Shown here in pieces: positions 15,029-61,399 of a stretch of DNA of 64,000 nt (position 1 is its first letter; the number at the start of each line of letters is the position of its first letter). Under the pieces are notes generated by a model. The model ran no database searches. It had not been told where the DNA came from and saw only the letters and a program-made list of their open reading frames with translations. A program made the position numbers and the translations under genes. This stretch comes from a phage. Location: NCBI GenBank assembly GCA_025611195.1, contig GCA_025611195.1_4718.1, one strand, 5' to 3'.

Positions 15029-15056
15029 TGTCACCTAGGTAATGTAAGCGTCAAAT
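15029..15056 (-). promoter_or_regulatory. diverged copy B of the promoter-like motif (TACATTAC variant)
   Basis: Minus strand reads ...GACGCTTACATTACCTAGGTGACAG; shares the ATTACCTAGGTGA core; upstream of gene 13445-14881. Confidence 0.35.
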
Positions 15057-15218: not shown

Positions 15219-17441
15219 TCAGTTAGTCTGAACCGGCAGCTTGATGTTTTCAGTGTAGACCTTACGCAGGTTCACAACGTTAATCAGACCCAGCAGCGGG
15301 CAGTTGTTAACGAAGCGGCAGCGAGGCTGAACCATGGTTTCTTTAGAAACCTGACCGTTACGGGTAACCTGAGCAACAGATACCAGTTCCGGTACATACA
15401 GGAACATACCGAAGGTCAGCGGATCCGGAGAACCCTGGATACCACGAGACAGGGTCACGAAGATCTTATCACGCAGCAGGACGTTCGGGTTATCTACAAC
15501 CACGAAGTTGAAGCTTACACCAACGGTACGGAAATCACCATCGGTCTGCAGGAACTGCGGGATGTAGTTGTCGGTTGCTACTACGCAACGCGGTTTCTCA
15601 TCAGCGTTGGAAGACAGCAGCTGCAGAGCTGGCTGATAACCAGACTCGGAGTACATGCGATATGCCATCTCACGAATCACGTTCATGATCGCAGCGGACA
15701 CTTCGGCACGACGTTCTGCAGTGGTGGTACCCTGAACAGATTTCGCCAGGTCCAGATTGATTTCTTCGAACCACGGACGGATCAGGTAACGACCGAAACC
15801 TTCGATCTGGATATCACCGAACTGACGGAAGCGAGAGGTCGCAACCGCTTTCAGTGCATCTTTGTAGCTGAACAGTTTCTCAACCATCAGGTTGTCGAAA
15901 CGTGCGTTAGCAGCTTGGATCAGAACGTCCAGGTCAGCAGCGTTTTCTTCCCAATCCAGCGGACGAGGAATAGAGAACGGAGCCAGCAGGCCGATTGCGT
16001 AACGTTCTTGCTTCATGTTGAAGTCAAGGTGTTTACCACGTTCACGACGGTTGCTGTTGTTACGGCGAATACGCAGTTCGTAACCAACCAGTTTGAAGCT
16101 CAGGTCGTCAGCCAGGTCTTTAAATTCTTGGCTCTTACGCGGCTGTTCGATGTTGTCCTGATCAACCAGGCGATACAGTTCAGCGTTAGCACCGTTAACA
16201 CGCAGACCTGCTTTCTCTACGTTGGAAGAACCGTAAACTTCGATAGCCAGCTGAGCAGCAGATTTCGCATCGATGATGTCCTGCAGCGCTTCAGCTTTCG
16301 CGCCTTTAACGTCAACGGTGTTCTCATCAACGAAGATGGAGTGGGTGTCGAACGCCAGGGTCATTTTGCGGAAGTCGCCTTCCAGGGATTTCTGGAAACC
16401 GTTGGTAATCAGACCGGATACGTCGAACGGAACGTAAGAGGTCTTGCTGTGCTTGGCTGATTTGATTTCCACCAGGATTTTGGTCAGCGTGATCTGAGCA
16501 TCCAGCGCGTCGGTGTTGTCGCTGTAACCGTTAGCCAGAATGCTATCGTCTTCAGCGATACCGATCATGTCGATCAGTTTATCAACAGCCAGGTAAGACG
16601 TTTTGTAAGTTACGCCTTTGATCTCGATGTCGCGCGGAGCAACGATAGTTTTGTCAACGAAGTACTGCGCGTTAGCATCGTCAGCACGATAGATCGGATG
16701 CAGATCGGTCACGTCGTTGGACAGAACGTCGTTGTACATGAACGCATCCAGCAGCGGACGACGTACCCAATCAGCCGGAGTACCGTCAGCGTTACGACGC
16801 AGGTGGTTGAACACCAGCGGACGACGGAAAGATACATCATAACCGATCTGGTTCGGAGCCAGAACGATGGTGTTGTACAGTTCGTTACCCATGCGGCTCA
16901 GACGAGAAGCCTTCACGTTGAACACAACGGAGTACGGCATCATGTCACGCAGTTCTTTCTGGTCGTAGGACAGCTGAACCAGTTCTTCAGATTCGCAACC
17001 GCAGGAATCAGCAGCCATCATGACGAAGTTAGAGCTGTCAACTTCACGGCCAGACGGAGTGGTGCTGATGTTCATGGAACGTGCTTGTTTAGCATATTCC
17101 ACCGGGTTGCCATGAGCCAGCATGATCAGTGCTGCTGCACGAGCCTGCTGTGCGTTCATGGTGAACAGCTGTTCTTCAATACGCTGCTTCTCTTCCGGAG
17201 TGGTGGTTTCGAAGCCCAGCATGGACAGAACCGGTTCTTCTGCTTTACGGATGTCGCTGCTGAAGCTCTTAACATCCATATCGTTAACCAGTTTGTCCAT
17301 GGATTTGAAATCAACCTTAGAAGCAGATTCCATAGACAGGAAGGTGTTCTCCAGACCTTTGTCTGCTGGTTTGCTACCATTAGCGGTCAGGAACTGGCGA
17401 GTGGCCGCGACCTGTTGGCTAAGAAGGGTTTTATCATTCAT
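15219..17441 (-). CDS. putative major capsid protein (740 aa, phiKZ-like size class)
   Basis: AAAGGA SD before ATG 17441; codon usage strikingly different from neighbours (CTG, CGT, GGT, AAC, ACC, TTC dominate), consistent with very high expression. The antisense track ORFs 15144-16460 and 16698-17444 are by-products of that bias. Confidence 0.55.
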   Translation of the reverse strand: MNDKTLLSQQVAATRQFLTANGSKPADKGLENTFLSMESASKVDFKSMDKLVNDMDVKSFSSDIRKAEEPVLSMLGFETTTPEEKQRIEEQLFTMNAQQARAAALIMLAHGNPVEYAKQARSMNISTTPSGREVDSSNFVMMAADSCGCESEELVQLSYDQKELRDMMPYSVVFNVKASRLSRMGNELYNTIVLAPNQIGYDVSFRRPLVFNHLRRNADGTPADWVRRPLLDAFMYNDVLSNDVTDLHPIYRADDANAQYFVDKTIVAPRDIEIKGVTYKTSYLAVDKLIDMIGIAEDDSILANGYSDNTDALDAQITLTKILVEIKSAKHSKTSYVPFDVSGLITNGFQKSLEGDFRKMTLAFDTHSIFVDENTVDVKGAKAEALQDIIDAKSAAQLAIEVYGSSNVEKAGLRVNGANAELYRLVDQDNIEQPRKSQEFKDLADDLSFKLVGYELRIRRNNSNRRERGKHLDFNMKQERYAIGLLAPFSIPRPLDWEENAADLDVLIQAANARFDNLMVEKLFSYKDALKAVATSRFRQFGDIQIEGFGRYLIRPWFEEINLDLAKSVQGTTTAERRAEVSAAIMNVIREMAYRMYSESGYQPALQLLSSNADEKPRCVVATDNYIPQFLQTDGDFRTVGVSFNFVVVDNPNVLLRDKIFVTLSRGIQGSPDPLTFGMFLYVPELVSVAQVTRNGQVSKETMVQPRCRFVNNCPLLGLINVVNLRKVYTENIKLPVQTN

Positions 17442-21312: not shown

Positions 21313-21383
21313 TTTACCTTTCTATGTTAGGTGGATTGCGGATAGAAGAATCAATGCATAAACTAATTTAAGTTTGTTAAGGT

Positions 21384-22286
21384 TTACTTAGCCTTTGAGT
21401 TATGCGGACTAACATGCTGTTGTACTCGTTGGATTGTATCGTAGTACGGGTTAGATTGGTTGAACATGTTGTTGTGTGGGGGATAGCCATATGGCGCATT
21501 TTGCCTTGTTGGTGAGAAACCTTGTTGAGAAGGACGGTTTGAATTAACCGCGAGTACGTAGTAAACCAAATTTTGACGGTCGAATGTTCCTTCGTTTTTG
21601 AAAGTGTCGGCGTAGGCTTTTACCGCTGGAGTGAGCCTATCACCATCGGCTGTAATAATTGTACCGTCTGGGTAAACTTCCCGAACGACGCACCATGTTC
21701 CGATGAGAACATCTTTAGGTGCTGTATTACCATATCCGGTTGTAACGGTAAGGTAAGTATCGAACCCTTCAGAACAACAAGGATGACGATAGATGGGTCC
21801 TGTCATTTCCGTTCTATCGGTATCGCTACATTGTTCTATTGAGAGCGATGATGTGTCGGTTTTGAAATTGTCAAATTCTTTCTTTAAGTCGATTACGGGT
21901 TCTTTCGTATAGTACTTCTTGATTGCTTTGACGTAAAGATCAGGAACGGTTGTCAGCAATCCGTTATACCTGATTCTCAGGTTTTCGAGTAATCCAAAGA
22001 TGCTCGCGCATGCCTGTTCGCGAGGTTTTGTAAGATAAGAGATCCCCTCAGGAACGCTGGGATCTTTGAGAAAGAAGATTGCGTTATTGTCGTTGTGCGA
22101 TGCGTTGAAGAAAACGATTGATTCGATATATACGGAGCATAGGCTGTCATTGGCGTCGTCAGATAACACCCAGATGCACTCATCGGTCGTCTTGTTTAAA
22201 AGTTCTGTTTTGTCGACCAAACGTTGTTTCATTGCGAGGAAATGTGCCTGTTGTTCAGCAGTTAATTCACGATAAATAGTGGTCAT
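21384..22286 (-). CDS. hypothetical protein, Cys-containing paralog of 22372-23145
   Basis: AAGGAG SD before ATG 22286 (track start 22364). Shares (G/K)PIY(R/I)HP(C/E)C...YL(T/T)(V/I)T.G...REVYPDG(T/R)I with the upstream gene. Confidence 0.7.
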   Translation of the reverse strand: MTTIYRELTAEQQAHFLAMKQRLVDKTELLNKTTDECIWVLSDDANDSLCSVYIESIVFFNASHNDNNAIFFLKDPSVPEGISYLTKPREQACASIFGLLENLRIRYNGLLTTVPDLYVKAIKKYYTKEPVIDLKKEFDNFKTDTSSLSIEQCSDTDRTEMTGPIYRHPCCSEGFDTYLTVTTGYGNTAPKDVLIGTWCVVREVYPDGTIITADGDRLTPAVKAYADTFKNEGTFDRQNLVYYVLAVNSNRPSQQGFSPTRQNAPYGYPPHNNMFNQSNPYYDTIQRVQQHVSPHNSKAK

Positions 22287-22331
22287 GTTGGGCTCCTTGA
22301 TTACGATAAGGATGATTGCGGTTTTGTGGGT

Positions 22332-22364
22332 TTGGTAGGGCCCTAAACAAAGGAACCCTACCAA
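22332..22364. terminator. hairpin between the two Cys-containing paralogs
   Basis: ttggtaggg-(15-nt loop)-ccctaccaa, 9-bp stem. Confidence 0.4.
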
Positions 22365-22371
22365 TATTAGG

Positions 22372-23145
22372 TTAATCAGGATCGGCGTAGAAATGGTGAG
22401 GATAGCCGGAGTACGATCCTGCGTTACCGGCTATGGATTCTTTCTGGGAATCGACGACGAGCGCATAGAACTGTCGGGAATTTGTTAGCGTTGAGAAATA
22501 AGCGGAAAGGACTTTTTCATTCAATGCATCACAAGGTAGGCAGGTGCGACCGCAAAACGTCACGATACGGCCGTCAGGATAGATCTCACGAATCATTCTC
22601 CACTCACCGATATCCACTGGTGATGGCGCTGCTACACCACCTGTTATCGTTAAGTAACGATCGTACGTGGTATGGCATTCAGGATGAATATAGATCGGCT
22701 TGTTCGTTTCGACAGGTTCCGAAGTATCTCGACGACTAAGAAGCTCAACGACTTCAAGATAAATCGTTGGTAGATCGCGGAGAATACCGGTGCTACGACG
22801 TTTCTTTGTGATTCGCGGACGAATCTCGTTGAGAGCGTATTCGAGCTTACGTTCAGCTTCGTACGCATCGAGTTTTATCAAGCGACCCGGTTCATCGGAA
22901 TGATCCTGAGTTACGTAAACGAAATACGTGTCGCCTTTTGCAGCGTGAAAGATTCGAGCGACCTTAAATGTTTCTACGGTACGATAACCAAGGCGCGATT
23001 GATTTTCCACAGGAGAAAATATCCAATGCCGTCCTTCGTCAGCCTCAACAATTTCGTTGAAACTATCTGTCTGTTCTGGGACCTGGTAGTCAGCCAGTAA
23101 TGTGTCGAGAGCATCATCAGCCAGTTTGATGTAAATATCTGTCAT
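22372..23145 (-). CDS. hypothetical protein, Cys-containing paralog of 21384-22286
   Basis: GAGGA SD before ATG 23145; C-terminal KPIYIHPECHTTYDRYLTITGG...IREIYPDGRIVTFCGRTCLPC. Confidence 0.75.
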   Translation of the reverse strand: MTDIYIKLADDALDTLLADYQVPEQTDSFNEIVEADEGRHWIFSPVENQSRLGYRTVETFKVARIFHAAKGDTYFVYVTQDHSDEPGRLIKLDAYEAERKLEYALNEIRPRITKKRRSTGILRDLPTIYLEVVELLSRRDTSEPVETNKPIYIHPECHTTYDRYLTITGGVAAPSPVDIGEWRMIREIYPDGRIVTFCGRTCLPCDALNEKVLSAYFSTLTNSRQFYALVVDSQKESIAGNAGSYSGYPHHFYADPD

Positions 23146-23178
23146 GTTTGTATCCTCGGTTATTAAGAGAAATTTACA

Positions 23179-23204
23179 GTGATAACAGTAAGCGTTGTTA
23201 TCAC
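23179..23204 (-). promoter_or_regulatory. hairpin overlapping the 3' end of motif copy A
   Basis: gtgataaca-gtaagcgt-tgttatcac, 9-bp stem. Confidence 0.4.
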
Positions 23205-23230
23205 CTAGGTAATATAGTCGCGAAATAAAC
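23199..23230 (-). promoter_or_regulatory. conserved promoter-like motif, copy A (contains TATATTAC on minus strand)
   Basis: Minus strand reads AGTTTATTTCGCGACTATATTACCTAGGTGATAA; about 65 nt upstream of ATG 23145. Confidence 0.5.
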
Positions 23231-23259
23231 TGGAGTAATGCGCTTAAGACAGCATAAAC

Positions 23260-23291
23260 CCCTCTCCCAACCCGTCAGGGAAGGGAGAGGG
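23260..23291. terminator. GC-rich hairpin (CCCTCTCCC family)
   Basis: ccctctccc-aa-ccc-gtca-ggg-aa-gggagaggg; immediately after the stop of 23296-24663. Confidence 0.6.
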
Positions 23292-23295
23292 AATA

Positions 23296-24663
23296 TTAAA
23301 CGGTTGGACGAACGGTATTGTCTTTTTCTGGTGCGATCCATAACGTGACCGTACCATGGCATGTCCACTGTGGTTCACGTACAGAAGAACCCGCCATCGT
23401 TACAGCGCAATCGGTACGCATGATGACCCCATATGCTTCGCAGAGGTTGTTATCCTGCATCCACACAACTTTAGCGGGCATACCGGGATACAACAGATCC
23501 ATGTTTGCGTATTCCCACACCAACTGCATTGTTCTACCGCGTAATCCAGCAGTATTGCTTATTTCACGCCATCGGTTATCGGTTACGCGTCCCATCCCTT
23601 TCGCCACCTTCACGTTATCGCTACGCTCTTCAGTTACGTACTCGCTAACGTTTACGGTACGACTGATTATGGTATCGCCCCCCTTTGATAATGTCATCCC
23701 CTGACTCATCTGACTTGCCGAAACAAAACGCCCACCCGCATTACCTAACAACGAAGCCGCGTTATTGACGTCGCTTACCGACGCCCCTCTCGTACATGCA
23801 ATTTCCACGTATTTGTCGCGATTGATCCAGGTCTTGTCCATACCCGGAAACATATCGGCAGGATAGTTGTAAAAGATAGCTGTACGTCGACCGTCAGAGA
23901 AACGGGTTTCGTCGTATAAGGGGTAGATATACAGATACGGGGATTGATAATAACAACCGACATCTGCTGAATAAATACCAACCTGGTTCTGGATTTTATC
24001 TACGAGATCCATCGCATTGGTACCGTGTGGAAGAATAAGCAACTTGAATGGGTTGTCGTTATTCGGTGCAACGATATCCACACCCTGCATTTTGAATCCG
24101 GTGTCAGCTTCAACCGCAGAAAGTATCTTGCTGAATTCAAGGCGCAACACATCCAGCACTTTCGATCCAGTATAGTTCTCACCGGTTTCTGATTGCATGA
24201 AGCTTTCAAGAACAGGATCGAACAGTTGAAATTGAAGATCGACCATTTGTTCGTAGTCTTTCTTCGAAGAATCGGTTGCGGTACGTTCGTCGGTAGCAGA
24301 CATACGACTGTCTACGGTTGTTAAACAGACCGCCCGGTAGACATAAGCCTGTGCGGCATCGTCTACGGTTTGGCGTTGTCCGCGCATCAGGCTGTACGCC
24401 TGCACGATGATGCGCATTTTAAGTTGTTGTTGGTACGGTAGAATGTATTTTCCGTAACTGCCTGGTGGAAACTTTACAGAGATATAAAGTTCATCCCCTG
24501 CGTTACGTTCATAGTCTCGATACGTGTGGACTTGAGTCACTAAAGGAACAGACACCGTCATTGACGGCGTGATTAATTCCGCGGTGACTTTATACGCAAC
24601 AGCAACAGCTTCCTGCGCAAACGTACCGATATACCGTCCTAACGGCGTCTGTTTGTAATCCAT
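23296..24663 (-). CDS. hypothetical protein (455 aa), first visible gene of a six-gene operon, possibly structural
   Basis: Long ORF; 3-nt gap to the next gene; no catalytic motif. Confidence 0.8.
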   Translation of the reverse strand: MDYKQTPLGRYIGTFAQEAVAVAYKVTAELITPSMTVSVPLVTQVHTYRDYERNAGDELYISVKFPPGSYGKYILPYQQQLKMRIIVQAYSLMRGQRQTVDDAAQAYVYRAVCLTTVDSRMSATDERTATDSSKKDYEQMVDLQFQLFDPVLESFMQSETGENYTGSKVLDVLRLEFSKILSAVEADTGFKMQGVDIVAPNNDNPFKLLILPHGTNAMDLVDKIQNQVGIYSADVGCYYQSPYLYIYPLYDETRFSDGRRTAIFYNYPADMFPGMDKTWINRDKYVEIACTRGASVSDVNNAASLLGNAGGRFVSASQMSQGMTLSKGGDTIISRTVNVSEYVTEERSDNVKVAKGMGRVTDNRWREISNTAGLRGRTMQLVWEYANMDLLYPGMPAKVVWMQDNNLCEAYGVIMRTDCAVTMAGSSVREPQWTCHGTVTLWIAPEKDNTVRPTV

Positions 24664-28512: not shown

Positions 28513-28563
28513 CGCAGATTCCTGTTTGAAAGATAAGATATCACATGATGGTCGACAGCATAA

Positions 28564-28585
28564 AGCCCACCCCGAAGGGCGGGCT
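28564..28585. terminator. imperfect GC-rich hairpin
   Basis: agcccacccc-gaa-gggcgggct with one A.C mismatch; CATA 28559-28562 and TATG 28589-28592 flank it. Confidence 0.45.
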
Positions 28586-28600
28586 GTTTATGCGCACGGA

Positions 28601-51645: not shown

Positions 51646-52965
51646 TTAGGCGACAATAGAGTCAAGTGTTGCTGCCGTTTTAAACAGATCGTTGTTGATA
51701 ACCGTAGACAGTGTTTTCTGAACCTGCTCCTGCTTCACGGCTTGCTGAACATCAGAACGCAACGCGATGGTAATGAGCTCCATAACGGTACGATTATCGT
51801 TGACCGTTTTCAAGATCTTGTCGATTTCTTTTATCGCGTCTAGTGTCGAAACGCGGATATCCTGAGGTAAATCACGATCTTTAAGACGTCCAACCAACTC
51901 TTGTTTTAATTTCGCAACACGATCCTTGTCGCTGGTGTACGTGGAATAGGTAAAGTCGTATAGTGTTATTGTTTTCAGGTTGACGAAAAGAGCTACCGTA
52001 CTCATTGTACCCAGGATTGGGTTAATTAACGATAAACCAACGATTGCGCCAATAACGGACAATGAACATACAGCATATTGCGTCCAAATACTATTGCGAT
52101 CCCTTACTGATATTTTTCCGAGACGTTTGTAAATTTTTGCTAGCGCGTCTGCCATTGCAGCTCCGCCGCCATGACGGGTGACGAATTGATCGGCGACAAA
52201 TTCCGCTGAAGTATCGGAATAGCGACCCATGTGCGTTGCGACACGTGTCTGCTCTTCTTTATTGCTTATATACACGGTGTACCAGGTGGCAACATCGCTT
52301 GATTCCGCAATGACGTTGACGTCAACCGTTGTACCCATCGCATCGTTTAATGATTTCGCGAGCGTGATCTTTTTCTCTTTATCTGTTGTTTGTAGTAATT
52401 CGCGTGCGGCGGTTGCGAGAGAAAAATCCGTCTTAGCGGATTCGGCGATAAATTCCAGGAAAGTAAAAGCGTGCCCAACTTCGTGCAATACAAACGCTGC
52501 TTTGTTTTCCGGAGTGAATTCCGTATCACGAATAAATCCGTCGGTTACAAATACGCGGATAACGATTTTCTCGAACGCACCTTTCACCCTACCATTGACA
52601 AGATCGACCACACCGACGATTTCATCGATATTCTTACTTAACTGTTTAAAATCTCTGTTTCGATAGAACTGTTTACGCCATTCTTCAATAAGCACATTGT
52701 TTTTTGTAATGTCTGGAGTAATACAGGAACAGTTAATTTCACTCATGTTCGGTATTACTTCTGTCTGGATGGTCAACCCAGTGTGTTTGCGTATTAAATC
52801 GGATAGTGGCTTACCACTGATATATTTTACCTTTTCTTCATAGCTGGTAAGATTATCCATTGTTTTGAATAACTCGGTCATTTCCTTGAACAAGGAACCA
52901 TCTTGAAACTTGATGGCCTCCATCGTTAATTCGTCATGACCATACACGCGTTGTAGTAATGACAT
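51646..52965 (-). CDS. putative membrane-associated Zn metallopeptidase (HExxH)
   Basis: GAGAG SD before ATG 52965; motif AFVLHEVGHAFTFLEFIAE (HExxH plus downstream Glu); ~40-residue hydrophobic stretch YAVCSLSVIGAIVGLSLINPILGTMSTVALFV. Confidence 0.5.
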   Translation of the reverse strand: MSLLQRVYGHDELTMEAIKFQDGSLFKEMTELFKTMDNLTSYEEKVKYISGKPLSDLIRKHTGLTIQTEVIPNMSEINCSCITPDITKNNVLIEEWRKQFYRNRDFKQLSKNIDEIVGVVDLVNGRVKGAFEKIVIRVFVTDGFIRDTEFTPENKAAFVLHEVGHAFTFLEFIAESAKTDFSLATAARELLQTTDKEKKITLAKSLNDAMGTTVDVNVIAESSDVATWYTVYISNKEEQTRVATHMGRYSDTSAEFVADQFVTRHGGGAAMADALAKIYKRLGKISVRDRNSIWTQYAVCSLSVIGAIVGLSLINPILGTMSTVALFVNLKTITLYDFTYSTYTSDKDRVAKLKQELVGRLKDRDLPQDIRVSTLDAIKEIDKILKTVNDNRTVMELITIALRSDVQQAVKQEQVQKTLSTVINNDLFKTAATLDSIVA

Positions 52966-53186: not shown

Positions 53187-54938
53187 ATGAGCGAACAAGA
53201 ACGAAAACCTAAGAAGAAACTGCTCGGTATTCAATGTCGACACATCAGCTATAACGAAGCGAACGATGGTAGTAAGAACGACCTCATGATCGCAAAAGAG
53301 ATCATGTTCTTCGATGATAATACGCAAGCGACGAACCTTCGCTTCTTCGAGAATTACAAACGTCCGTTTTGGGTGACGGTAGAGAGTAAACGCAAGAACA
53401 AATATAAAAAGGAAAGCGAGAAGCTCTCGCACGTGCGACGCTACGATGTCCGTCAAAGTGAGCTGGTTGAAAAGATCAGCTCGGTGCTTTATAAAAGACG
53501 TGCTGACGATAACACCCGTTTACAGCAGCTTGCACGGAGTCCCTACCTCTATGGCACGGACGTTAGCGCCAGCTGTTATTTAAAAACCCAATACAATACA
53601 AAATGGCCGGAATACGTCGATAAATTACCCGCGTCTATCGCATGTTTCGATATCGAAACCGATGTTGTCCACGGACACGGTAAGATCGTCTGTATGTCTA
53701 TTACAATGGGATACAATGCGATCCTTTGCTATACCAAGGACTTCGTTGGTCATATTCCGAATGCGATTGAGAAAACCCATGAGAAGATTCGATATTACCT
53801 GGCCGAACGTCTGAACACCAAAGAAGATCCTCATGCGTTCGAAAAATATCAGTACGATGTTCGAATCGTAGAAAGCCCAGCACAAGCGGTCATCCAATGC
53901 ATGCAGAAGGTTCACGAATGGCAGCCGGATTATCTCCTTGGCTGGAATATCGCGTTCGATATTCCGCGTATGCTCCAGGCACTGAACGAGGAAGGGTATC
54001 GTCCCGAGGATGTTTTCTCCGATCCTCGTGTACCACCTAAGTATCGTATTGCTCGCTGGGTACCACCGAAGACCGACAAGGTATCTGCTTCAGGTCGTAA
54101 AACCAACCTTACCCTTGAGCAAACCTGGCCGATGTTTTATACGATGGCCACGTATCAGGTTATGGATGCGATGTGTGGTTATAAGTTCGTTCGTTTAGGA
54201 AGACCGGATGAGGGGAGATACTCACTCGATGCGGTGTTAGAGCGAAATAAATGTCATACGAAATTAAAAGCAATTCCTGGTACAGAGGGGTTCACGGAGC
54301 TTGCGTGGCACGAAGAGATGCAAACGAACCATCAAATCGACTACGGCGTATATAACCTTTGGGATAACCAGGGTATCGAGGCGTTGGACCAGAAAACAAA
54401 AGACTATTCGATGACCATCCCTATTCGTTTGGCAGCATCGGATTTGAAAGATTTCAGTTCTAACCCTAAACGTATCTGCGATAAACTTTTCTTCGTTTAT
54501 CTTAACCGTGGGGAAGTCATGGGATGCACCGCCGACGACATGACCCAGGAAGAAGATAAGTGGGTTATCTCACGAACCGGACATATCGTCACATTGCCAT
54601 GCGATCTCATGGCGGACAACGGCATCCATCTCTTCTGGGATATGCCGAACCTGAGAAGTTATATCCGTCTATTCGTTGCAGACCTCGACATTAGCAGTTC
54701 ATACCCGAATGGGCAGATCCTGTTGAATCTATCCAGAGCATGTGTTTTTCGTGAGCTCTCACGCATTGAAGGCGTCTCTGACTATCAGTTCAGGAAGTTA
54801 GGTATCAACTTTATTACCGGAGGTAAAACGAACGCTGTAGACTTCTGTAGAATCGTTTATAAAGCACCATCGATGTTCGAACTCTTAGAACATTTCGATG
54901 CAACGCGTCCAAAAGGGGAAGCGCGGACCATCGAATGA
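53187..54938 (+). CDS. family-B DNA polymerase, N-terminal fragment (3'-5' exonuclease domain plus motif A)
   Basis: Exo I ACFDIETD, Exo II GWNIAFDIP, Exo III YGVYNLWD, motif A DLDISSSYPN; ORF stops ~75 aa later with no motif B (KxxxNSxYG) or motif C (YGDTDS). Confidence 0.75.
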   Translation: MSEQERKPKKKLLGIQCRHISYNEANDGSKNDLMIAKEIMFFDDNTQATNLRFFENYKRPFWVTVESKRKNKYKKESEKLSHVRRYDVRQSELVEKISSVLYKRRADDNTRLQQLARSPYLYGTDVSASCYLKTQYNTKWPEYVDKLPASIACFDIETDVVHGHGKIVCMSITMGYNAILCYTKDFVGHIPNAIEKTHEKIRYYLAERLNTKEDPHAFEKYQYDVRIVESPAQAVIQCMQKVHEWQPDYLLGWNIAFDIPRMLQALNEEGYRPEDVFSDPRVPPKYRIARWVPPKTDKVSASGRKTNLTLEQTWPMFYTMATYQVMDAMCGYKFVRLGRPDEGRYSLDAVLERNKCHTKLKAIPGTEGFTELAWHEEMQTNHQIDYGVYNLWDNQGIEALDQKTKDYSMTIPIRLAASDLKDFSSNPKRICDKLFFVYLNRGEVMGCTADDMTQEEDKWVISRTGHIVTLPCDLMADNGIHLFWDMPNLRSYIRLFVADLDISSSYPNGQILLNLSRACVFRELSRIEGVSDYQFRKLGINFITGGKTNAVDFCRIVYKAPSMFELLEHFDATRPKGEARTIE

Positions 54939-55017: not shown

Positions 55018-55035
55018 TGGAAGTTTTATGTGTTT

Positions 55036-55485
55036 TTAATTATTGTTGATGGGGTTATCGTCCGGCTTATATTCGATGCCGTAGGCGACGTAACGGTCTG
55101 TCGTATGGACGACAAGCGAGATGGGGAAATCATAATGCGTGGTTTTGTCTCGGACGAGCTGAGTAAAGAGATCCATATAACGTATTAAGTCTTCACTGGT
55201 GTAATCAGAAGGGAAGAAGACGTCGATGGTTATTGAATCTTCATAGAGGCGTATAACCAACTTATCCAGAAGGTCGGCATATTGGTTAGCCGGGGTGACG
55301 TCCAGCTCACAGATATCACGATCTCCTTCGTCTCGTGATACCCACATCATGGTATCCTGTAATGAGGTTTCAAGGATCTCGAAAATGCATTTTGCTGTAA
55401 GTTTTAGTTTATTTGTTACGTCATGGTTAGGTGAATAATGGTCACGGATGTTTTTCACTGCGTCTTTGATAGAGAAAGTCATCAT
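55036..55485 (-). CDS. small paralog family member 1 (149 aa)
   Basis: C-terminal DFPISLVVHTTDRYVAYGIEYKPDDN matches the family FP(I/L)xL...(E/H)YxPD signature. Confidence 0.7.
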   Translation of the reverse strand: MMTFSIKDAVKNIRDHYSPNHDVTNKLKLTAKCIFEILETSLQDTMMWVSRDEGDRDICELDVTPANQYADLLDKLVIRLYEDSITIDVFFPSDYTSEDLIRYMDLFTQLVRDKTTHYDFPISLVVHTTDRYVAYGIEYKPDDNPINNN

Positions 55486-55495
55486 TGATGCTCCT

Positions 55496-56005
55496 TCAAA
55501 TGAAATTAATACGTGCGGCTGTCGAAACGAGTTCGCTTGTAAAGCAATGCTTACCGTCGGTGTTTACCGTGTATGTAAGTTTACAAACCTTAGCGGCAGG
55601 GTTAGCACCGATAACAAGGACGGTCGTCATATCGAACAGTTCCACACGTTGAAGAAATGCCGTATCGGCTACCTTCTGTAAACCGGTTGCTTCAAAATCG
55701 ATGTGGTCGTTAAGAGGCACCAATTGGATTTCAATGCGTTCTTTGAAAAGTTTAAACGTTACTGAAAACCGATGAGGTTCGGTATTAAGCCATAAAGGTC
55801 CACGTTGGAAGTGCTGATATGCTTCATTCGCGGTGTTCTCGAAAACCCAGCAGTCGTGGACAAGAGAAGCCTCTTGTAACGATGATTCCAGGTAGTCAAA
55901 TACCTTGTTTATCGTTTTCTCAAGCATAGGCGCTAGTGAACCAGGGTATCCGGCAAATGCTGCTTCGGCAATCGATTTTATTGATACGATGTTGTTCTGA
56001 CTCAT
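55496..56005 (-). CDS. small paralog family member 2 (about 169 aa)
   Basis: AAGGAA SD then ATG 56005 (track start 56032); architecture resembles neighbours but divergent. Confidence 0.6.
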   Translation of the reverse strand: MSQNNIVSIKSIAEAAFAGYPGSLAPMLEKTINKVFDYLESSLQEASLVHDCWVFENTANEAYQHFQRGPLWLNTEPHRFSVTFKLFKERIEIQLVPLNDHIDFEATGLQKVADTAFLQRVELFDMTTVLVIGANPAAKVCKLTYTVNTDGKHCFTSELVSTAARINFI

Positions 56006-56536: not shown

Positions 56537-56935
56537 TTATGCTTCGCAATCAGCTGAAGACGTCGCGCCTTTCTTACCAGCGATACGCCAAATCCGACAC
56601 GCTGGATAATGGTTAACCTCTAGAGAGCAAGGAATGTTATATTTCTCTTCCAGCGCATAAAGACATTTCGTTAGCTGCTCCAGCGCGTTCTCGTCGTGTC
56701 GTAACGCGTGGTGGCCTAATCGATGTTGGTCGTTCTTTATATACGCCTCGAAGAGAACATGTTGGCGATGTACGCTGACGTTTACAGCCTCGAGTATAGC
56801 TTGGTCGAGCATACGACTAAAGCACATCAACGAGTCAGATACGTTTTCTCGCTTAACCAGATCGATCATGGCGGGAATATACGAATGGTCGATGTTATCG
56901 ATGACCGCTTTAGCGACGGAATCAGCAACGTTCAT
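56537..56935 (-). CDS. small paralog family member 4 (about 132 aa)
   Basis: Track start GTG 56965; AGGGA SD then ATG 56935. Close paralog of 56972-57367 (VAKAVIDNIDH..., EEKYNIPCSLEVN). Confidence 0.7.
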   Translation of the reverse strand: MNVADSVAKAVIDNIDHSYIPAMIDLVKRENVSDSLMCFSRMLDQAILEAVNVSVHRQHVLFEAYIKNDQHRLGHHALRHDENALEQLTKCLYALEEKYNIPCSLEVNHYPACRIWRIAGKKGATSSADCEA

Positions 56936-56971
56936 CTTTTTAATCCCTAGTTTGTTATTGATCACGTATAT

Positions 56972-57367
56972 TTACTCTTTGACGTCAGTTGTCGTTTCGA
57001 CATGCTTCTCACTACTGACGTACCAGAGCAGGTACGCTGGGAAAAGATTGACCTCTAAGCTAAATGGGATATTGTATTTCTCTTCCATTTTACAGAGATG
57101 TTCTTTAATTAAATTTCTCGCGTCTCTGTCACCACGAACAGAGTGCCAGTCTAGTTCTTTGTTCTCCTTTACCAGGACCTCTACGATGATACGTTGCTCG
57201 TGAACCTCGGTTTTCACAGTGAAAAGTAAATCGCTGCTATCAAAACGGGTAAAACGAATGTATGAACCAGGTGTTTTTTCTTGTTTAATAATATCGATCA
57301 TGGTAGAAATGCGCGGATGATCGATGTTGTCGTTAACAGCTTTAACGATGGATTCTACAATGCTCAT
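56972..57367 (-). CDS. small paralog family member 5 (131 aa)
   Basis: IVKAVNDNIDHPRISTMIDIIKQE and EEKYNIPFSLEVN mirror member 4. Confidence 0.7.
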   Translation of the reverse strand: MSIVESIVKAVNDNIDHPRISTMIDIIKQEKTPGSYIRFTRFDSSDLLFTVKTEVHEQRIIVEVLVKENKELDWHSVRGDRDARNLIKEHLCKMEEKYNIPFSLEVNLFPAYLLWYVSSEKHVETTTDVKE

Positions 57368-57399
57368 TTTTTATCCTTAATGTTATCGATTTGGAAATA

Positions 57400-58167
57400 T
57401 TACTTATTTTTGCTTTCTTTATAGACAGTTGTTACCCACGATGGGAAAGCCGGATGGAAACAGAGCGTGAACGTAACTGTCGTATCGTATTTAAACGCGC
57501 AGTTCACTAACCGGGTATCGAACGTTTTCCTTAGACCATCATCATCGTTATCGATGACAGCCATATCTCTTAATATCCCAAGCACGTTAACGCCGTCGAG
57601 TGTCTGGGTTACGACAAGTCGTCGTAATGGCCCGCATGTATAGTCACGTACAAATCCTTTCTTCGGGTCCGATACCCTGTTTAACGCATCGTGATTTTTG
57701 ATGAATTCATCGGCGATACAATAGGTTTGTTCCCTTGCTTTATCGGGATCGTATTCTGCTAATAGTTCCTTCGTGTCGAACGTTATCATGTTATTATCAT
57801 TCGATTCAGAAGGGAAACATAAAACTAAACGAACAGGGTATTCGTATTGATCTGTTCTTGTTTCGAAAGCATTAGCTAGACACGGCTTGTATGCCTTTGC
57901 GTCGACATTGTCCAAACATGGATGCAATAATGCATGAATAACGGCACCATCGTCAGTTAAACCGAATTCCAGAAATTGTACTTTATCAGTATCCGCTACG
58001 GTTTTCTGAAGATACGCTTTACCGTTTACGATATCGGTATCCCACATATCGTCGTTTAACGATTCTTCAAACTTATCGAATATATGGTTTACGAGATTGA
58101 CGAGTTCATCAATACGGCACTGTTGGTTGAATTCGATTAATCGCTGAACTTTATCTTTGATAGACAT
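57400..58167 (-). CDS. small paralog family member 6 (255 aa, apparently two-domain)
   Basis: YEYPVRLVLCFPS...EYDPD signature plus a second VTFTLCFHP strand. Confidence 0.7.
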   Translation of the reverse strand: MSIKDKVQRLIEFNQQCRIDELVNLVNHIFDKFEESLNDDMWDTDIVNGKAYLQKTVADTDKVQFLEFGLTDDGAVIHALLHPCLDNVDAKAYKPCLANAFETRTDQYEYPVRLVLCFPSESNDNNMITFDTKELLAEYDPDKAREQTYCIADEFIKNHDALNRVSDPKKGFVRDYTCGPLRRLVVTQTLDGVNVLGILRDMAVIDNDDDGLRKTFDTRLVNCAFKYDTTVTFTLCFHPAFPSWVTTVYKESKNK

Positions 58168-58169
58168 GA

Positions 58170-58628
58170 TTACCCCTTAGTTTCTTCTTCGTCTGGAGAG
58201 TACTCCATTGTGTAGAATTCATAACCATCGGAAAACTTGAGTGTTAATGTAATAGGGAAATCGCACGGCATAGCTGATTTCGTAAACGCGTTATTAGCAA
58301 CATCAGCCAACCGACGTATAGCATCAGTCCCGCTGACGCTGAACGGTAGTTGTATGTTGATAAGGATGCGGTGCTTGTAAACATGGAAAACAACGGTACT
58401 GTCAAGATAAACGCTATGGAACGGTATTGTTGGGATGCGTTCCACGATGGTAAAATACGTCCCGTCATTATCGCTATGTCCCATCGACCAAATATCGGAT
58501 TTGCGTAGATTTTGTTTGAGGGATTCGATACTTCGAGTGACGGTATCAACAACAGGCGTGACGTAAGTGTCTTTATGCGAGTCGAAAAGTTCGTTGACGT
58601 TAGATTCGAATGAATACATTGTTGCCAT
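58170..58628 (-). CDS. small paralog family member 7 (152 aa)
   Basis: QLPFSVSGTDAIRRLADVANNAF...CDFPITLTLKFSDGYEFYTMEYSPDEE; start ATG overlaps upstream stop (TAATG). Confidence 0.75.
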   Translation of the reverse strand: MATMYSFESNVNELFDSHKDTYVTPVVDTVTRSIESLKQNLRKSDIWSMGHSDNDGTYFTIVERIPTIPFHSVYLDSTVVFHVYKHRILINIQLPFSVSGTDAIRRLADVANNAFTKSAMPCDFPITLTLKFSDGYEFYTMEYSPDEEETKG

Positions 58629-59089
58629 TATTCTACCTCTTTCTTCATCTTCATCGGAACAGAGAGTGCTGTTATCTCTGTTCCATTATCCGGTTCATAC
58701 TCCAATGTAACGAGATTGCAGCCATCCGATAATTCATAATCGATCGCTAGGGGGAACGAGACACCGTGCGACTTTATGCATTTACCAAATGTCTCGTTGG
58801 CTGTATACATTAGAAGTTGCTTTGCGGCAAGCCCGTTTACGCTGAAAGGTAATCGTGCTGTCGCAGCGATACGATTATTGTAAACTCTGATATCGGTGAT
58901 ATCTACAATCGTAGCATTGCCGTGTTGTGTCGTTGGAACGGATAGGCTGTAGAAGTAAGGTTCGGAGTCGGAATCGGGCTCGTTAAATAATTCCCAGCAC
59001 CCGTCCTCCTGCAATCTTACTTCGAGTATTTCAAAGCTTTTAATTATCGATTCTACCAGCTGCTCACCGTAAGAATCCCATGTCGTCAT
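58628..59089 (-). CDS. small paralog family member 8 (about 153 aa)
   Basis: Track start GTG 59107; AAGGTG SD then ATG 59089. RLPFSVNGLAAKQLL...VSFPLAIDYELSDGCNLVTLEYEPDNG. Confidence 0.7.
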   Translation of the reverse strand: MTTWDSYGEQLVESIIKSFEILEVRLQEDGCWELFNEPDSDSEPYFYSLSVPTTQHGNATIVDITDIRVYNNRIAATARLPFSVNGLAAKQLLMYTANETFGKCIKSHGVSFPLAIDYELSDGCNLVTLEYEPDNGTEITALSVPMKMKKEVE

Positions 59090-59159
59090 TTTTAACACCT
59101 TCGACACCTTTTAACCGATGCGTGCCCCACCTAACAAGGGACACGATATCGTTGATTAA

Positions 59160-59654
59160 TTACTCTTCTGTGTTTTCATTGTCAGGATCGTAATGGAATT
59201 CGAACAGCCCTGAACCGTCATGTCCGTTGATTGTTAGTATAACGGGCATATCGAATCCTCGGACGCGCGAATGAAAACACTGTGCTAATTTTAGTTTGGC
59301 GTATGCCGCTATTTCATTGACGGCAATACACGACTCACCTGTTATACTCAGTATAACGTCGATACTAACAACGTTGTCGTGCAACGCAAAACGCCAGCGA
59401 TCGATACGATTATTATCTTTAGCAGCTGTCTCGTTTACGAGATAGACTTTATCGTCAACTGACAAAGCAGGGCTCCAGCAACGTTCGTTTATTAAATTCG
59501 CCTGGAGTTTTAGTATCGTCTGATCAATAATATCCCAACACGCAACCAGTGTGGTGTCGGGCACTGAACAGAGAAGGGCGAGCACTTTATCCTTTATTTT
59601 AAGTGCTTCCACAGAGCGTCCGCAAATACCATGCATTTCAACCTTCTTATTCAT
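59160..59654 (-). CDS. small paralog family member 9 (about 164 aa)
   Basis: Track start GTG 59660; AGAGGTG SD then ATG 59654. ...FDMPVILTINGHDGSGLFEFHYDPDNE. Confidence 0.7.
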   Translation of the reverse strand: MNKKVEMHGICGRSVEALKIKDKVLALLCSVPDTTLVACWDIIDQTILKLQANLINERCWSPALSVDDKVYLVNETAAKDNNRIDRWRFALHDNVVSIDVILSITGESCIAVNEIAAYAKLKLAQCFHSRVRGFDMPVILTINGHDGSGLFEFHYDPDNENTEE

Positions 59655-60400: not shown

Positions 60401-60823
60401 TCAATTCAGTGATGCATACAACGCATAACGACTGTAGATTTCAACCGCTGGTCCATTATGCGTTAACAGACCATCTCGGTTGTAGTATTGGAAAAATGAA
60501 TAACGTTTGTCGAAGTGATAAACGAAAGCAATGTCTTTGCCAAGACCTGTGATGTGCGGTCTGTTTTTATCTAGCAATGCTTTGACTTTTAACAGTGTTG
60601 CCGCACGCGCTTTAACATTAGGGATTAATCCATCACAGTCGATATAAATCGTGTAACCTGTTTCTGATGCTGCGACAGTTGTATTGCGATTGACGCGAAA
60701 GATTTTTGTTTTGTATGTATCATCTTCAAGGATTGGGTTTTGTTTTTCGTATTTTCGTTTACGCAGAAATTCTACAACGGTAATATAGTTAGCGGTAATA
60801 TGTCCGGTTATAGCTTGTAACAT
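60401..60823 (-). CDS. hypothetical small protein (140 aa)
   Basis: ATG 60823 is about 65-95 nt downstream of conserved promoter-like motif 60889-60918; followed by a canonical terminator. Confidence 0.65.
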   Translation of the reverse strand: MLQAITGHITANYITVVEFLRKRKYEKQNPILEDDTYKTKIFRVNRNTTVAASETGYTIYIDCDGLIPNVKARAATLLKVKALLDKNRPHITGLGKDIAFVYHFDKRYSFFQYYNRDGLLTHNGPAVEIYSRYALYASLN

Positions 60824-60867
60824 CTTGACATCCTCTTATATTGGATTGATTACAGTTATCTTAAATA

Positions 60868-60895
60868 GGTGATAAGATATCTTGCTCTTATCACC
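60868..60895 (-). promoter_or_regulatory. hairpin overlapping the 3' end of motif copy C
   Basis: ggtgataaga-tatcttgc-tcttatcacc, 10-bp stem; stem differs from copy A by paired substitutions. Confidence 0.4.
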
Positions 60896-60918
60896 TTAGT
60901 AATATAGTCGTGAAATAG
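60889..60918 (-). promoter_or_regulatory. conserved promoter-like motif, copy C (contains TATATTAC on minus strand)
   Basis: Minus strand reads AGTCTATTTCACGACTATATTACTAAGGTGATAA, about 29 of 33 positions identical to copy A; upstream of ATG 60823. Confidence 0.5.
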
Positions 60919-60951
60919 ACTGCGTTAACAAGAAATAAAAACAGCATAAAA

Positions 60952-60989
60952 CCTCCTCCCCCATCCTTCAAGAGGACGGTGGGAAGAGG
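60952..60989. terminator. imperfect GC-rich hairpin
   Basis: cctcctccc-ccatcc-ttcaaga-ggacgg-t-gggaagagg with mismatches; minus-strand side followed by UUUUAUG and U-rich sequence. Confidence 0.4.
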
Positions 60990-60997
60990 GAGAGAGA

Positions 60998-61399
60998 TTA
61001 AATGTCGTGGACGGCAATGCCGTTTAACCAGCAATACAGCTTAACGCGACACGGATATCGCTTCGTTGCAGCAGCCATTTCATCGCGTAAACGCTGGTAG
61101 ATTTCATCCTGGTGTTCACGTTCAATGGGGTAATCAGCCCAACATTCGATCATGACGTCACCATTAGTCAAAATCGTCGTACGCATCCTGTCCTGGACAC
61201 GACGATCTTTCCCAGCATTAGGGAAATACATTCCTTCAGTACGAATAAGGTCGCCACAGGGCATGACTAACCATTCGTTCGTTTTGCTGGTATTCTTATA
61301 ATCCAATACAGCTTGCATTGCGGTGTCAACGCTAAAAGAAACATAATTCCAAACGGGGGTCCAACGATAGATTGCAGGTTGTTCAAGTGTTTCGTTCAT
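60998..61399 (-). CDS. hypothetical small protein (133 aa)
   Basis: AGGAAAAG SD before ATG 61399; TATG 49 nt upstream; bounded by hairpins on both sides. Confidence 0.65.
   Translation of the reverse strand: MNETLEQPAIYRWTPVWNYVSFSVDTAMQAVLDYKNTSKTNEWLVMPCGDLIRTEGMYFPNAGKDRRVQDRMRTTILTNGDVMIECWADYPIEREHQDEIYQRLRDEMAAATKRYPCRVKLYCWLNGIAVHDI

Follow-up and report, generated by a model that had tools for sequence, protein, structure and literature searches.

A recurrent hairpin straddling the predicted start site of early promoters in Goslar-like jumbo phages

The window, by which we mean the whole 64,000-nt stretch of phage contig GCA_025611195.1_4718.1 that was analysed, is colinear with positions 28,221-89,781 of Escherichia phage vB_EcoM_Goslar (MK327938) at 94-95% identity, and by sequence it represents a Goslar-like nucleus-forming jumbo phage of E. 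coli, a member of Chimalliviridae. The Goslar annotation contains several RNA polymerase beta-like and beta-prime-like genes. At two loci in the window, copies A and C, all surrounding genes lie on the minus strand and the layout is the same: the stop codon of an upstream gene is followed by a GC-rich hairpin, the sequence TTTATGCTG, a conserved block and a palindrome, and ~30-40 nt past the palindrome a small gene without a family follows with its ribosome-binding site and ATG (Table 1). Neither of the two downstream genes matched a Pfam or PHROG family. Goslar lacks the 1.8-kb segment (21360-23141) that lies behind copy A and encodes two ORFs on the minus strand (21384-22364, 326 aa; 22372-23145, 257 aa); in Goslar the flanks are ~90 bp apart, and similarity resumes exactly at the ATG after promoter A. 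The 326-aa ORF found no match in Pfam. This segment looks like cargo exchanged behind a conserved promoter cassette. The window also contains a mosaic region of lower G+C (0.43-0.45), with non-Goslar blocks at 51696-52860, 54679-54702, 55030-55987, 56545-58180 and 58629-59182, and it lacks Goslar positions 81182-82967, which carry the NUMOD1/HNH endonuclease gene gp069.

Three GC-rich hairpins, each followed by TTTATGCTG, were observed on the minus strand at 23250-23292, 28556-28600 and 60942-60989. The window has three copies of the nonamer TTTATGYTG, and Goslar has 17 where 3.6 are expected. In phiKZ, the terminator motif consists of a hairpin plus TTAT (PMC10914365). The TTTATGYTG hairpins fit this motif, and the terminator signal therefore seems to be shared by the chimalliviruses of Pseudomonas and E. 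coli; in phiKZ, TATG also serves as the start motif of late promoters. The phiKZ-type terminator thus corresponds to the GC-rich hairpins that neighbour the palindromes at A and C, each followed by TTTATGCTG, and it is a different element from the promoter-proximal stem, which is AT-rich and carries no such tail.

Table 1. Features at copies A, B and C of the conserved block, in window coordinates
Feature	Position	Strand	Details
Copy A, terminator hairpin of upstream ORF 23296-24663	23259-23292	-	-29.9 kcal/mol, z -5.2; TTTATGCTG at 23250-23258
Copy A, predicted early promoter	23209-23245	-	box CTATATTAC 23209-23217, T-rich upstream part CAGTTTATTTCGCGA; PWM score 46 vs background <=22
Copy A, predicted transcription start	23202	-	G of TGA, 7th nt after TATATTAC; by homology
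Copy A, hairpin	23178-23205	-	5' arm 23196-23205, loop 23188-23195, 3' arm 23178-23187; 9 Watson-Crick pairs + 1 G·U
Copy A, downstream gene	22372-23145	-	257 aa; first gene of the 1.8-kb segment absent from Goslar
Copy B, predicted promoter	15032-15047	-	box TTACATTAC 15039-15047, predicted start 15032; PWM score 44
Copy C, terminator hairpin of upstream gene 60998-61399	60952-60989	-	-28.4 kcal/mol, z -4.1; TTTATGCTG at 60942-60950
Copy C, predicted early promoter	60899-60935	-	box CTATATTAC 60899-60907; PWM score 41
Copy C, predicted transcription start	60892	-	G of TGA; by homology
Copy C, hairpin	60867-60896	-	5' arm 60886-60896, loop 60878-60885, 3' arm 60867-60877; 11 Watson-Crick pairs
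Copy C, downstream gene	60401-60823	-	140 aa, 95% identical to Goslar gp075

The inverted-repeat finder returned, on the plus strand of copy A, the arms GTGATAACA (23179-23187) and TGTTATCAC (23196-23204), which are 9 nt long, 100% complementary and separated by an 8-nt spacer; on the coding (minus) strand, an extra G·U pair extends this hairpin. At copy C, the arms GGTGATAAGA and TCTTATCACC (60868-60877 and 60886-60895) gain a further A-T pair, resulting in a perfect 11-bp stem. Folding of the coding strand gave -11.4 kcal/mol for copy A (z -4.4 against dinucleotide shuffles) and -16.1 kcal/mol for copy C (z -5.8), with 0/200 shuffles as good in either case, and the two hairpins noticed in the first-pass annotation were thus confirmed by both inverted repeats and folding. 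The same annotation had claimed that the stems differ yet stay complementary while the loop is not conserved. This held as well: the arms of A and C differ by a single compensated pair, C-G in A and G-C in C, the coding-strand loops are unrelated (ACGCTTAC versus GCAAGATA), and the orthologues described below keep their stems. The flanks of the two copies have ~55 nt of similarity in common (TTATCACCTWRGTAATATAGTCGYGAAATARACTG on the plus strand). Because it is one event between two paralogues, the paired substitution between A and C is weak evidence when taken alone. At copy C, the inverted-repeat finder also returned an extended 21-nt, 81% repeat that runs into the -10 box, and this was set aside as AT-rich chance similarity.

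No terminator-like site was called at hairpin A or C. The tails that follow the two hairpins are GTAAATTT and ATTTAAG, and the AT-rich promoter-proximal stem has neither a U-tract nor a TTAT tail; an intrinsic terminator or attenuator was ruled out at both hairpins for want of a GC-rich stem with a U-tract (or TTAT). A scan for sigma-70 promoters at the hairpins gave none at A and, at C, a weak 9/12 match coinciding with the phage box. Rfam covariance models run over the copy A region (22900-23400) identified no family, the one match being a chance snoRNA hit (E 0.29) outside the hairpin.

The conserved block at A and C reads TTTCRCGA CTATATTAC YTWNNTGA on the coding strand. Our inspection of phiKZ early promoter sequences revealed the arrangement AAAAAAATTTGAGATT TATATTAC NNNNN TGA, and the chimallin promoters of phiKZ and Goslar are near-identical in sequence. 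Jumbo phages that encode RNA polymerases each have an AT-rich motif near -10, which proved to be an early promoter wherever tested (PMC7598289); in phiKZ the motif takes the form of an extended -10 box (PMC8244752), AR9 has the consensus AAATATATATTAT-(6N)-G+1 with the box TATATTAT, and the starts of phiKZ and phiR1-37 lie 6 nt past the element (PMC5312081). The Goslar-lineage block has the same AT-rich box TATATTAC near -10, the same A/T-rich upstream part and the same conserved T-G, the predicted T-1 G+1, six nt on, and it likewise stands before early genes, including that of chimallin. Because its layout matches that of the phiKZ and AR9 promoters, the conserved motif is, as judged from sequence, an early promoter of the virion-packaged multisubunit RNA polymerase, with the form TATATTAC-N5-TGA. 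Comparison with the start sites mapped in phiKZ and AR9 makes the G of the conserved TGA the most likely start of transcription. In Goslar, the predicted starts on the minus strand are 49718 (A), 86691 (C) and 172964 (chmA). This promoter class is already known, and its occurrence in Goslar-like phages follows published expectation. The Goslar lineage differs from phiKZ in the TTTCACGR that precedes the box and in a palindrome that straddles the start at ~60% of its promoters.

A weight-matrix scan of Goslar revealed 13 sites scoring 30-52, the next best scoring 22, and each of the 13 is located upstream of a gene, on its coding strand. One of them directly precedes gp189, which encodes chimallin (Pfam PF25677, E 5e-25), and according to a review chmA is among the earliest genes transcribed by the virion polymerase. 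In the window, the matrix found three sites, namely A (box start 23217), B (15047) and C (60907). T-G-A occupies positions 6-8 after the box at 13/13 Goslar sites and 3/3 window sites, so that the predicted start G is invariant. An exact CTATATTAC at 60780-60788 (minus strand), inside the copy C gene, has no TTTCACG upstream part or TGA and scored below threshold; it is probably a chance match and was left out of the promoter count. A literature search with the bare motif string returned unrelated papers only.

The first-pass annotation had taken the 5' arm of the hairpin to be the end of the conserved motif, and this was borne out, with the motif now assigned to the early promoter. It had also placed the stem at the very 5' end of the transcript. 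Since mapped phiKZ and AR9 promoters put the start inside the 5' arm, the stem would indeed lie at the very 5' end of the RNA, and RNA folded from the predicted start G opens directly with a 7-bp stem at both copies (-6.7 kcal/mol, z -4.8 at A; -7.6 kcal/mol, z -2.6 at C). This placement does not cover the 3-6 nt by which complementarity usually extends past the predicted start in the upstream direction, a feature to which we return below.

The hairpin recurs at other Goslar promoters. When the 45 nt after the box were folded for all 13 sites and only the part past the conserved first 12 nt was shuffled, the summed minimum free energy (MFE) was -114.5 against -67.7 ± 7.8 for tail shuffles (z -6.0, 0/500). 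With a sliding 34-nt window, the MFE minimum fell at the first nucleotide after the box, averaging -7.2 compared with approximately -3 in the neighbouring leader and flanks, while sets of 13 random genomic 34-nt windows gave a mean of -4.5 ± 0.8. Folding the Goslar RNAs from the predicted G+1 showed that the first nucleotide is paired with a mean probability of 0.60, as opposed to 0.27 in shuffles (z 4.5, 0/300). A clear stem is present at ~8/13 Goslar promoters (~60%), and none is present at 4-5 of them (142801, 201945, 43267, which corresponds to copy B, and 2568). Further genomic copies with a stem, which the first-pass annotation had suggested looking for, therefore exist, but so do copies that lack one, and the motif does not always come with a hairpin. 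The first-pass annotation had named copies without stem complementarity as counting against its claim, and copy B in part does so. At copy B, RNA from the predicted start folds to -5.3 kcal/mol (z -0.65), and the inverted-repeat finder returned no start-proximal repeat. Copy B has a conserved internal GCCT...AGGC stem ~14 nt into its leader; it lies just downstream of a 740-aa ORF (15219-17441) equivalent to Goslar gp041, whose annotation gives weak similarity to a putative major head protein, and ~150 nt upstream of a 480-aa gene without an assigned function.

The same tests on 18-19 phiKZ early promoters gave neither hairpin enrichment (z -1.1) nor an excess of first-nucleotide pairing (z 0.6), and the hairpin as a family-wide feature was rejected on these promoters. 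Both tests being negative, the hairpin is a trait of the Goslar lineage rather than of the promoter class, and because phiKZ shares the promoter yet shows no enrichment, the hairpin is not required by the polymerase. Individual stems that include the start G were seen at the phiKZ promoters 34584, 23585, 45568 and 266882. At another phiKZ site (L037, 220781-220808), the -10 box forms half of the palindrome TATATCAC AAAT GTGATATA, so that the motif can be read on both strands.

Pattern scans of IMG/VR and metagenome contigs yielded at least seven further Goslar-sized genomes plus some more distant ones, and 75 distinct promoter-plus-leader sequences were assembled from these relatives. With positions numbered from 1 at the nucleotide next to the box, which puts the predicted start at 7, we found ~15 different stems whose 5' edge lies anywhere from position 1 to 7; the predicted start G is paired in all of them, and none begins after it. 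In ~11 families, including A and C, the first stem starts exactly at RNA nucleotide 1, given the homology-based start. The A hairpin is kept in the orthologues of Goslar, c237k, c182k, OGZS and ERZ1026903, with arms GGTGATAACA...TGTTATCACT in the window, GGTGATAACAG...CTGTTATCGCT in c237k (IMG/VR contig 3300011560_000001) and GATGATAACAG...CTGTTATCGTT in Goslar; these orthologues display a change from U-A to U·G and a compensatory change from G-C to A-U. The C hairpin has orthologues in Goslar, ERZ1643250, ERZ1026903 and SKEV, with a change from G-C to G·U. In an alignment of A and C together (10 sequences), 90.9% of cells pair in register, compared with 33-69% when the partner is slid. Two pairs changed on both sides in this alignment (12-23, C-G or G-C; 5-30, G-C to A-U), and G·U occurs four times; its shuffle control was marginal (40/500) because the alignment comprises only two clades. 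In the Goslar-15068 family, Goslar has A-U/G-C at two neighbouring pairs where another genome has G-C/C-G, and a U·G inside the stem has been retained throughout the divergence.

Column variability across seven orthologue groups mirrored this pattern. Variable columns made up 18/55 in loops and 4/45 among the 3'-arm bases paired with transcribed positions (Fisher p 0.007 versus loops), along with 3/20 among the 3'-arm bases paired with -6 to -1 and 12/74 in the 3' flank. Across at least seven related genomes, the stem has been maintained in evolution while the loop has been free to vary. Among internal transition mismatches in strong stems, G·T on the coding strand arose in three independent events and A·C in none, a count that is suggestive only. 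Other relatives depart from the pattern. In L050, an A-type promoter leads straight into the ribosome-binding site with no hairpin, and L047 and L089 carry uncompensated arm changes; the hairpin is thus dispensable, and some natural variants break the stem. In L089 (an ERZ1643250 contig), where the A stem is broken, a new stem is present, shifted 6 nt downstream.

The reading we prefer, tentatively and with slightly less than even confidence, is a 5'-terminal stem-loop on early mRNAs that acts in RNA. Transcription would begin at the G of the conserved TGA, the initiation region of the promoter would itself serve as the 5' arm, with the complementary 3' arm following 3-13 nt on, and the early mRNA would start with a hairpin and zero unpaired 5' nucleotides. 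The most likely role of such a stem-loop would be to shield early mRNAs from decay that depends on the 5' end (through RppH/RNase E in E. coli); that it might tag early mRNAs for handling or for export out of the early infection vesicle seems less likely. This function is predicted, as is the start site, whereas the promoter identity and the existence, position, recurrence and conservation of the hairpin are what the analysis shows. Stabilising stem-loops at RNA 5' ends were reportedly described by Emory, Bouvet and Belasco in 1992 for the ompA 5' UTR and the T7 phi10 leader, where a stem flush with the 5' end blocks the entry of RppH and RNase E. The hairpins here resemble these stabilisers in being flush with the RNA 5' end, as counted from the predicted start, and they resemble T7 phi10 in that the conserved initially transcribed sequence of a phage-polymerase promoter forms the 5' arm. 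However, the ompA and T7 phi10 stabilisers neither need nor show complementarity upstream of the start, whereas the Goslar-lineage hairpins show it.

This upstream complementarity extends for 3 pairs at A, 4-5 at C and 4 in the Goslar-113798 family, and it reaches 6 nt upstream of the predicted start in Goslar-226696, L044, L010 and Goslar-187640. In four families (Goslar 226696 with L044; 160792; 187640; L010 with L059), the 5' arm occupies essentially positions 1-8, and RNA from the predicted G keeps 1-3 pairs; Goslar-226696 and L044 differ by a compensatory double change at -4/-3 (T-A/C-G versus C-G/T-A). An upstream extension of at least 3 pairs is found in 5 of the 11 families with a substantial RNA stem, for which we estimate a chance of ~1e-4, a rough figure that takes 0.3-0.5 per step. 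A model confined to the RNA predicts none of these features, and the DNA-level alternative of the first-pass annotation therefore still has to be weighed. The extension could possibly mean that the start lies some nucleotides further upstream than in phiKZ and AR9, or that the sense-strand DNA matters too. It is also possible that a palindrome-forming mutation makes both arms in one step and that only the transcribed part is subsequently maintained, and the variability figures, small as the numbers are, lean slightly toward this last option. Strand asymmetry in MFE was not decisive, the coding strand folding better in 8 families and the opposite strand in 4.

A palindrome acting in DNA would form a non-template-strand hairpin or small cruciform from approximately -6 to +26 and modulate promoter opening, start-site presentation, or escape and re-initiation, a reading we regard as unlikely. 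As a DNA element of initiation, it would account for the anchoring of the complementarity on T-1/G+1 and for its upstream extension: every stem includes these conserved nucleotides, none starts after G+1, most families have 3-6 nt of upstream complementarity, and in four it lies almost wholly upstream. Those four families also have perfect 8-9-bp arms with 4-6-nt spacers, which is the best geometry for extrusion; the compensatory double change at -4/-3 falls in the upstream part, and the MFE dip is deepest from the first nucleotide after the box, not from +1. There is in addition a relevant case in phiKZ, whose non-virion polymerase reads a start-site consensus on the single-stranded non-template strand (PMC12809450). 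Against such a role, a hairpin is not needed for promoter use, being absent from phiKZ and from 4-5/13 Goslar sites, and spacers of 8-13 nt, found at A, at C and in Goslar-113798, are unfavourable for cruciforms. The G·T pairs of the coding strand would be A·C mismatches on the opposite strand, and the partners of -6 to -1 are as variable as the flanks (3/20 versus 12/74), the partners of transcribed bases being more constrained (4/45). We know of no DNA-hairpin mechanism of this sort for a multisubunit polymerase.

The nearest known parallel for a DNA structure is the promoter of the N4 virion RNA polymerase, which also pairs a virion-delivered polymerase and early genes with a promoter-associated DNA hairpin. 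In N4, however, an obligatory hairpin with a 3-nt loop and specific bases is located upstream of +1 and serves a single-subunit enzyme. The Goslar-lineage palindrome is optional, extends from -6 to +26 and has loops of 3-13 nt that may have any sequence, and the evident recognition element there is a conserved linear box. An N4-type hairpin promoter was rejected on the -6 to +26 span, the variable loops and the absence from 4-5/13 promoters. That a start-straddling DNA hairpin or cruciform tunes the injected multisubunit virion polymerase, as a counterpart of the N4 hairpin promoter, seems to us quite doubtful.

Another explanation is that the repeats have little or no function, arising through palindrome-making mutation and gene conversion among mobile promoter cassettes and persisting for a while. 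Template switching, or quasi-palindrome mutagenesis, can generate perfect arms and apparent compensatory changes in one step, and it would ignore the start site, which would account for the upstream extensions. Conversion between cassettes would fit the A locus of ERZ1643250 with its C-type arm and the mosaic of 160792 and 226696 in L044, and the cargo swap immediately after promoter A and the dispensability of the hairpins point the same way. We nevertheless consider this improbable, given ~15 different stems all anchored at one position with the start G always paired, the strong enrichment over shuffles, the arms kept while loops diverge across at least seven genomes, the internal G·U persisting in the Goslar-15068 family, and the replacement stem where the old one broke in ERZ1643250.

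Signs of gene conversion between promoter cassettes were seen in L089, L044 and L047. In L089, the A locus has a C-type 5' arm, and L044 (an ERZ1026852 contig) joins the upstream half of Goslar 160792 to the downstream half of 226696, with a stem of its own. Arbiol and colleagues reportedly described promoter-early stem-loop (PeSL) cassettes of T4-type phages in 2010, in which units of a terminator hairpin and an early promoter flank small genes without a family and mark cargo swaps, as here. The likeness extends to the 1.8 kb of different genes after promoter A and to the mosaics between cassettes. In PeSL, however, the stem-loop is the upstream terminator, whereas the hairpin considered here is a second one, downstream of the promoter, and the polymerase differs.

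A role of the hairpin in read-through middle or late RNAs, as a processing site, decay barrier or attenuator, is in our view more improbable again. Such RNAs would carry the whole palindrome, including its -6 to -1 part, and short 5'-UTR RNAs arise from conditional termination in phiKZ (PMC10914365). Yet A and C have strong terminators of their own ~45-50 nt upstream, and Goslar 226696 and 187640, two promoters with most of the 5' arm upstream of the predicted start, lie between divergently oriented genes and have no gene upstream of them on their own strand. The stems lack a U-tract and were not called as terminators, and at 9-11 bp they are too short for RNase III. Least probable of all is a dyad that serves as an operator for a dimeric phage or host protein switching the early promoters, the protein-binding dyad of the first-pass annotation: it would overlap the start site, a classical operator position, and A and C have GTGATAA/TTATCAC half-sites in common, but this reading fails because the half-sites beyond the promoter consensus differ (GATAACA, GAAGC, TCATGAT, GATGT), as do arm lengths (5-11 bp) and spacers (3-13 nt, with 9 to ~28 nt from TGA to its TCA partner), while complementarity is kept through covariation of the variable bases, which a protein site does not need, and because 4-5 promoters have no dyad.

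The transcription papers and reviews that we searched (phiKZ, 201phi2-1, AR9, Goslar and general jumbo-phage reviews) do not mention a promoter-proximal hairpin. Relative to these papers, what is new is a recurrent promoter-proximal hairpin in the Goslar lineage, the start-straddling geometry being the part that most deserves experiment. Should its effect be confined to mRNA stabilisation, the 5'-terminal stem-loop would extend a well-established principle only modestly. Stems that stabilise RNA would make promoter and leader usable as a compact expression cassette for the phage polymerase. In practical terms, the observations can guide the annotation of early promoters and 5' ends in genomes of the Goslar type. 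Nucleus-forming jumbo phages carry out their early transcription inside a membrane vesicle, with few injected polymerases and uncoupled from translation. A recurrent, evolving stem fixed at the predicted start of ~60% of early promoters in the E. coli lineage, and absent from phiKZ, would be a mutable handle both on promoter recognition by the virion polymerase and on how early mRNAs survive and exit the vesicle, in a phage that is now genetically tractable through RNA-targeting tools.
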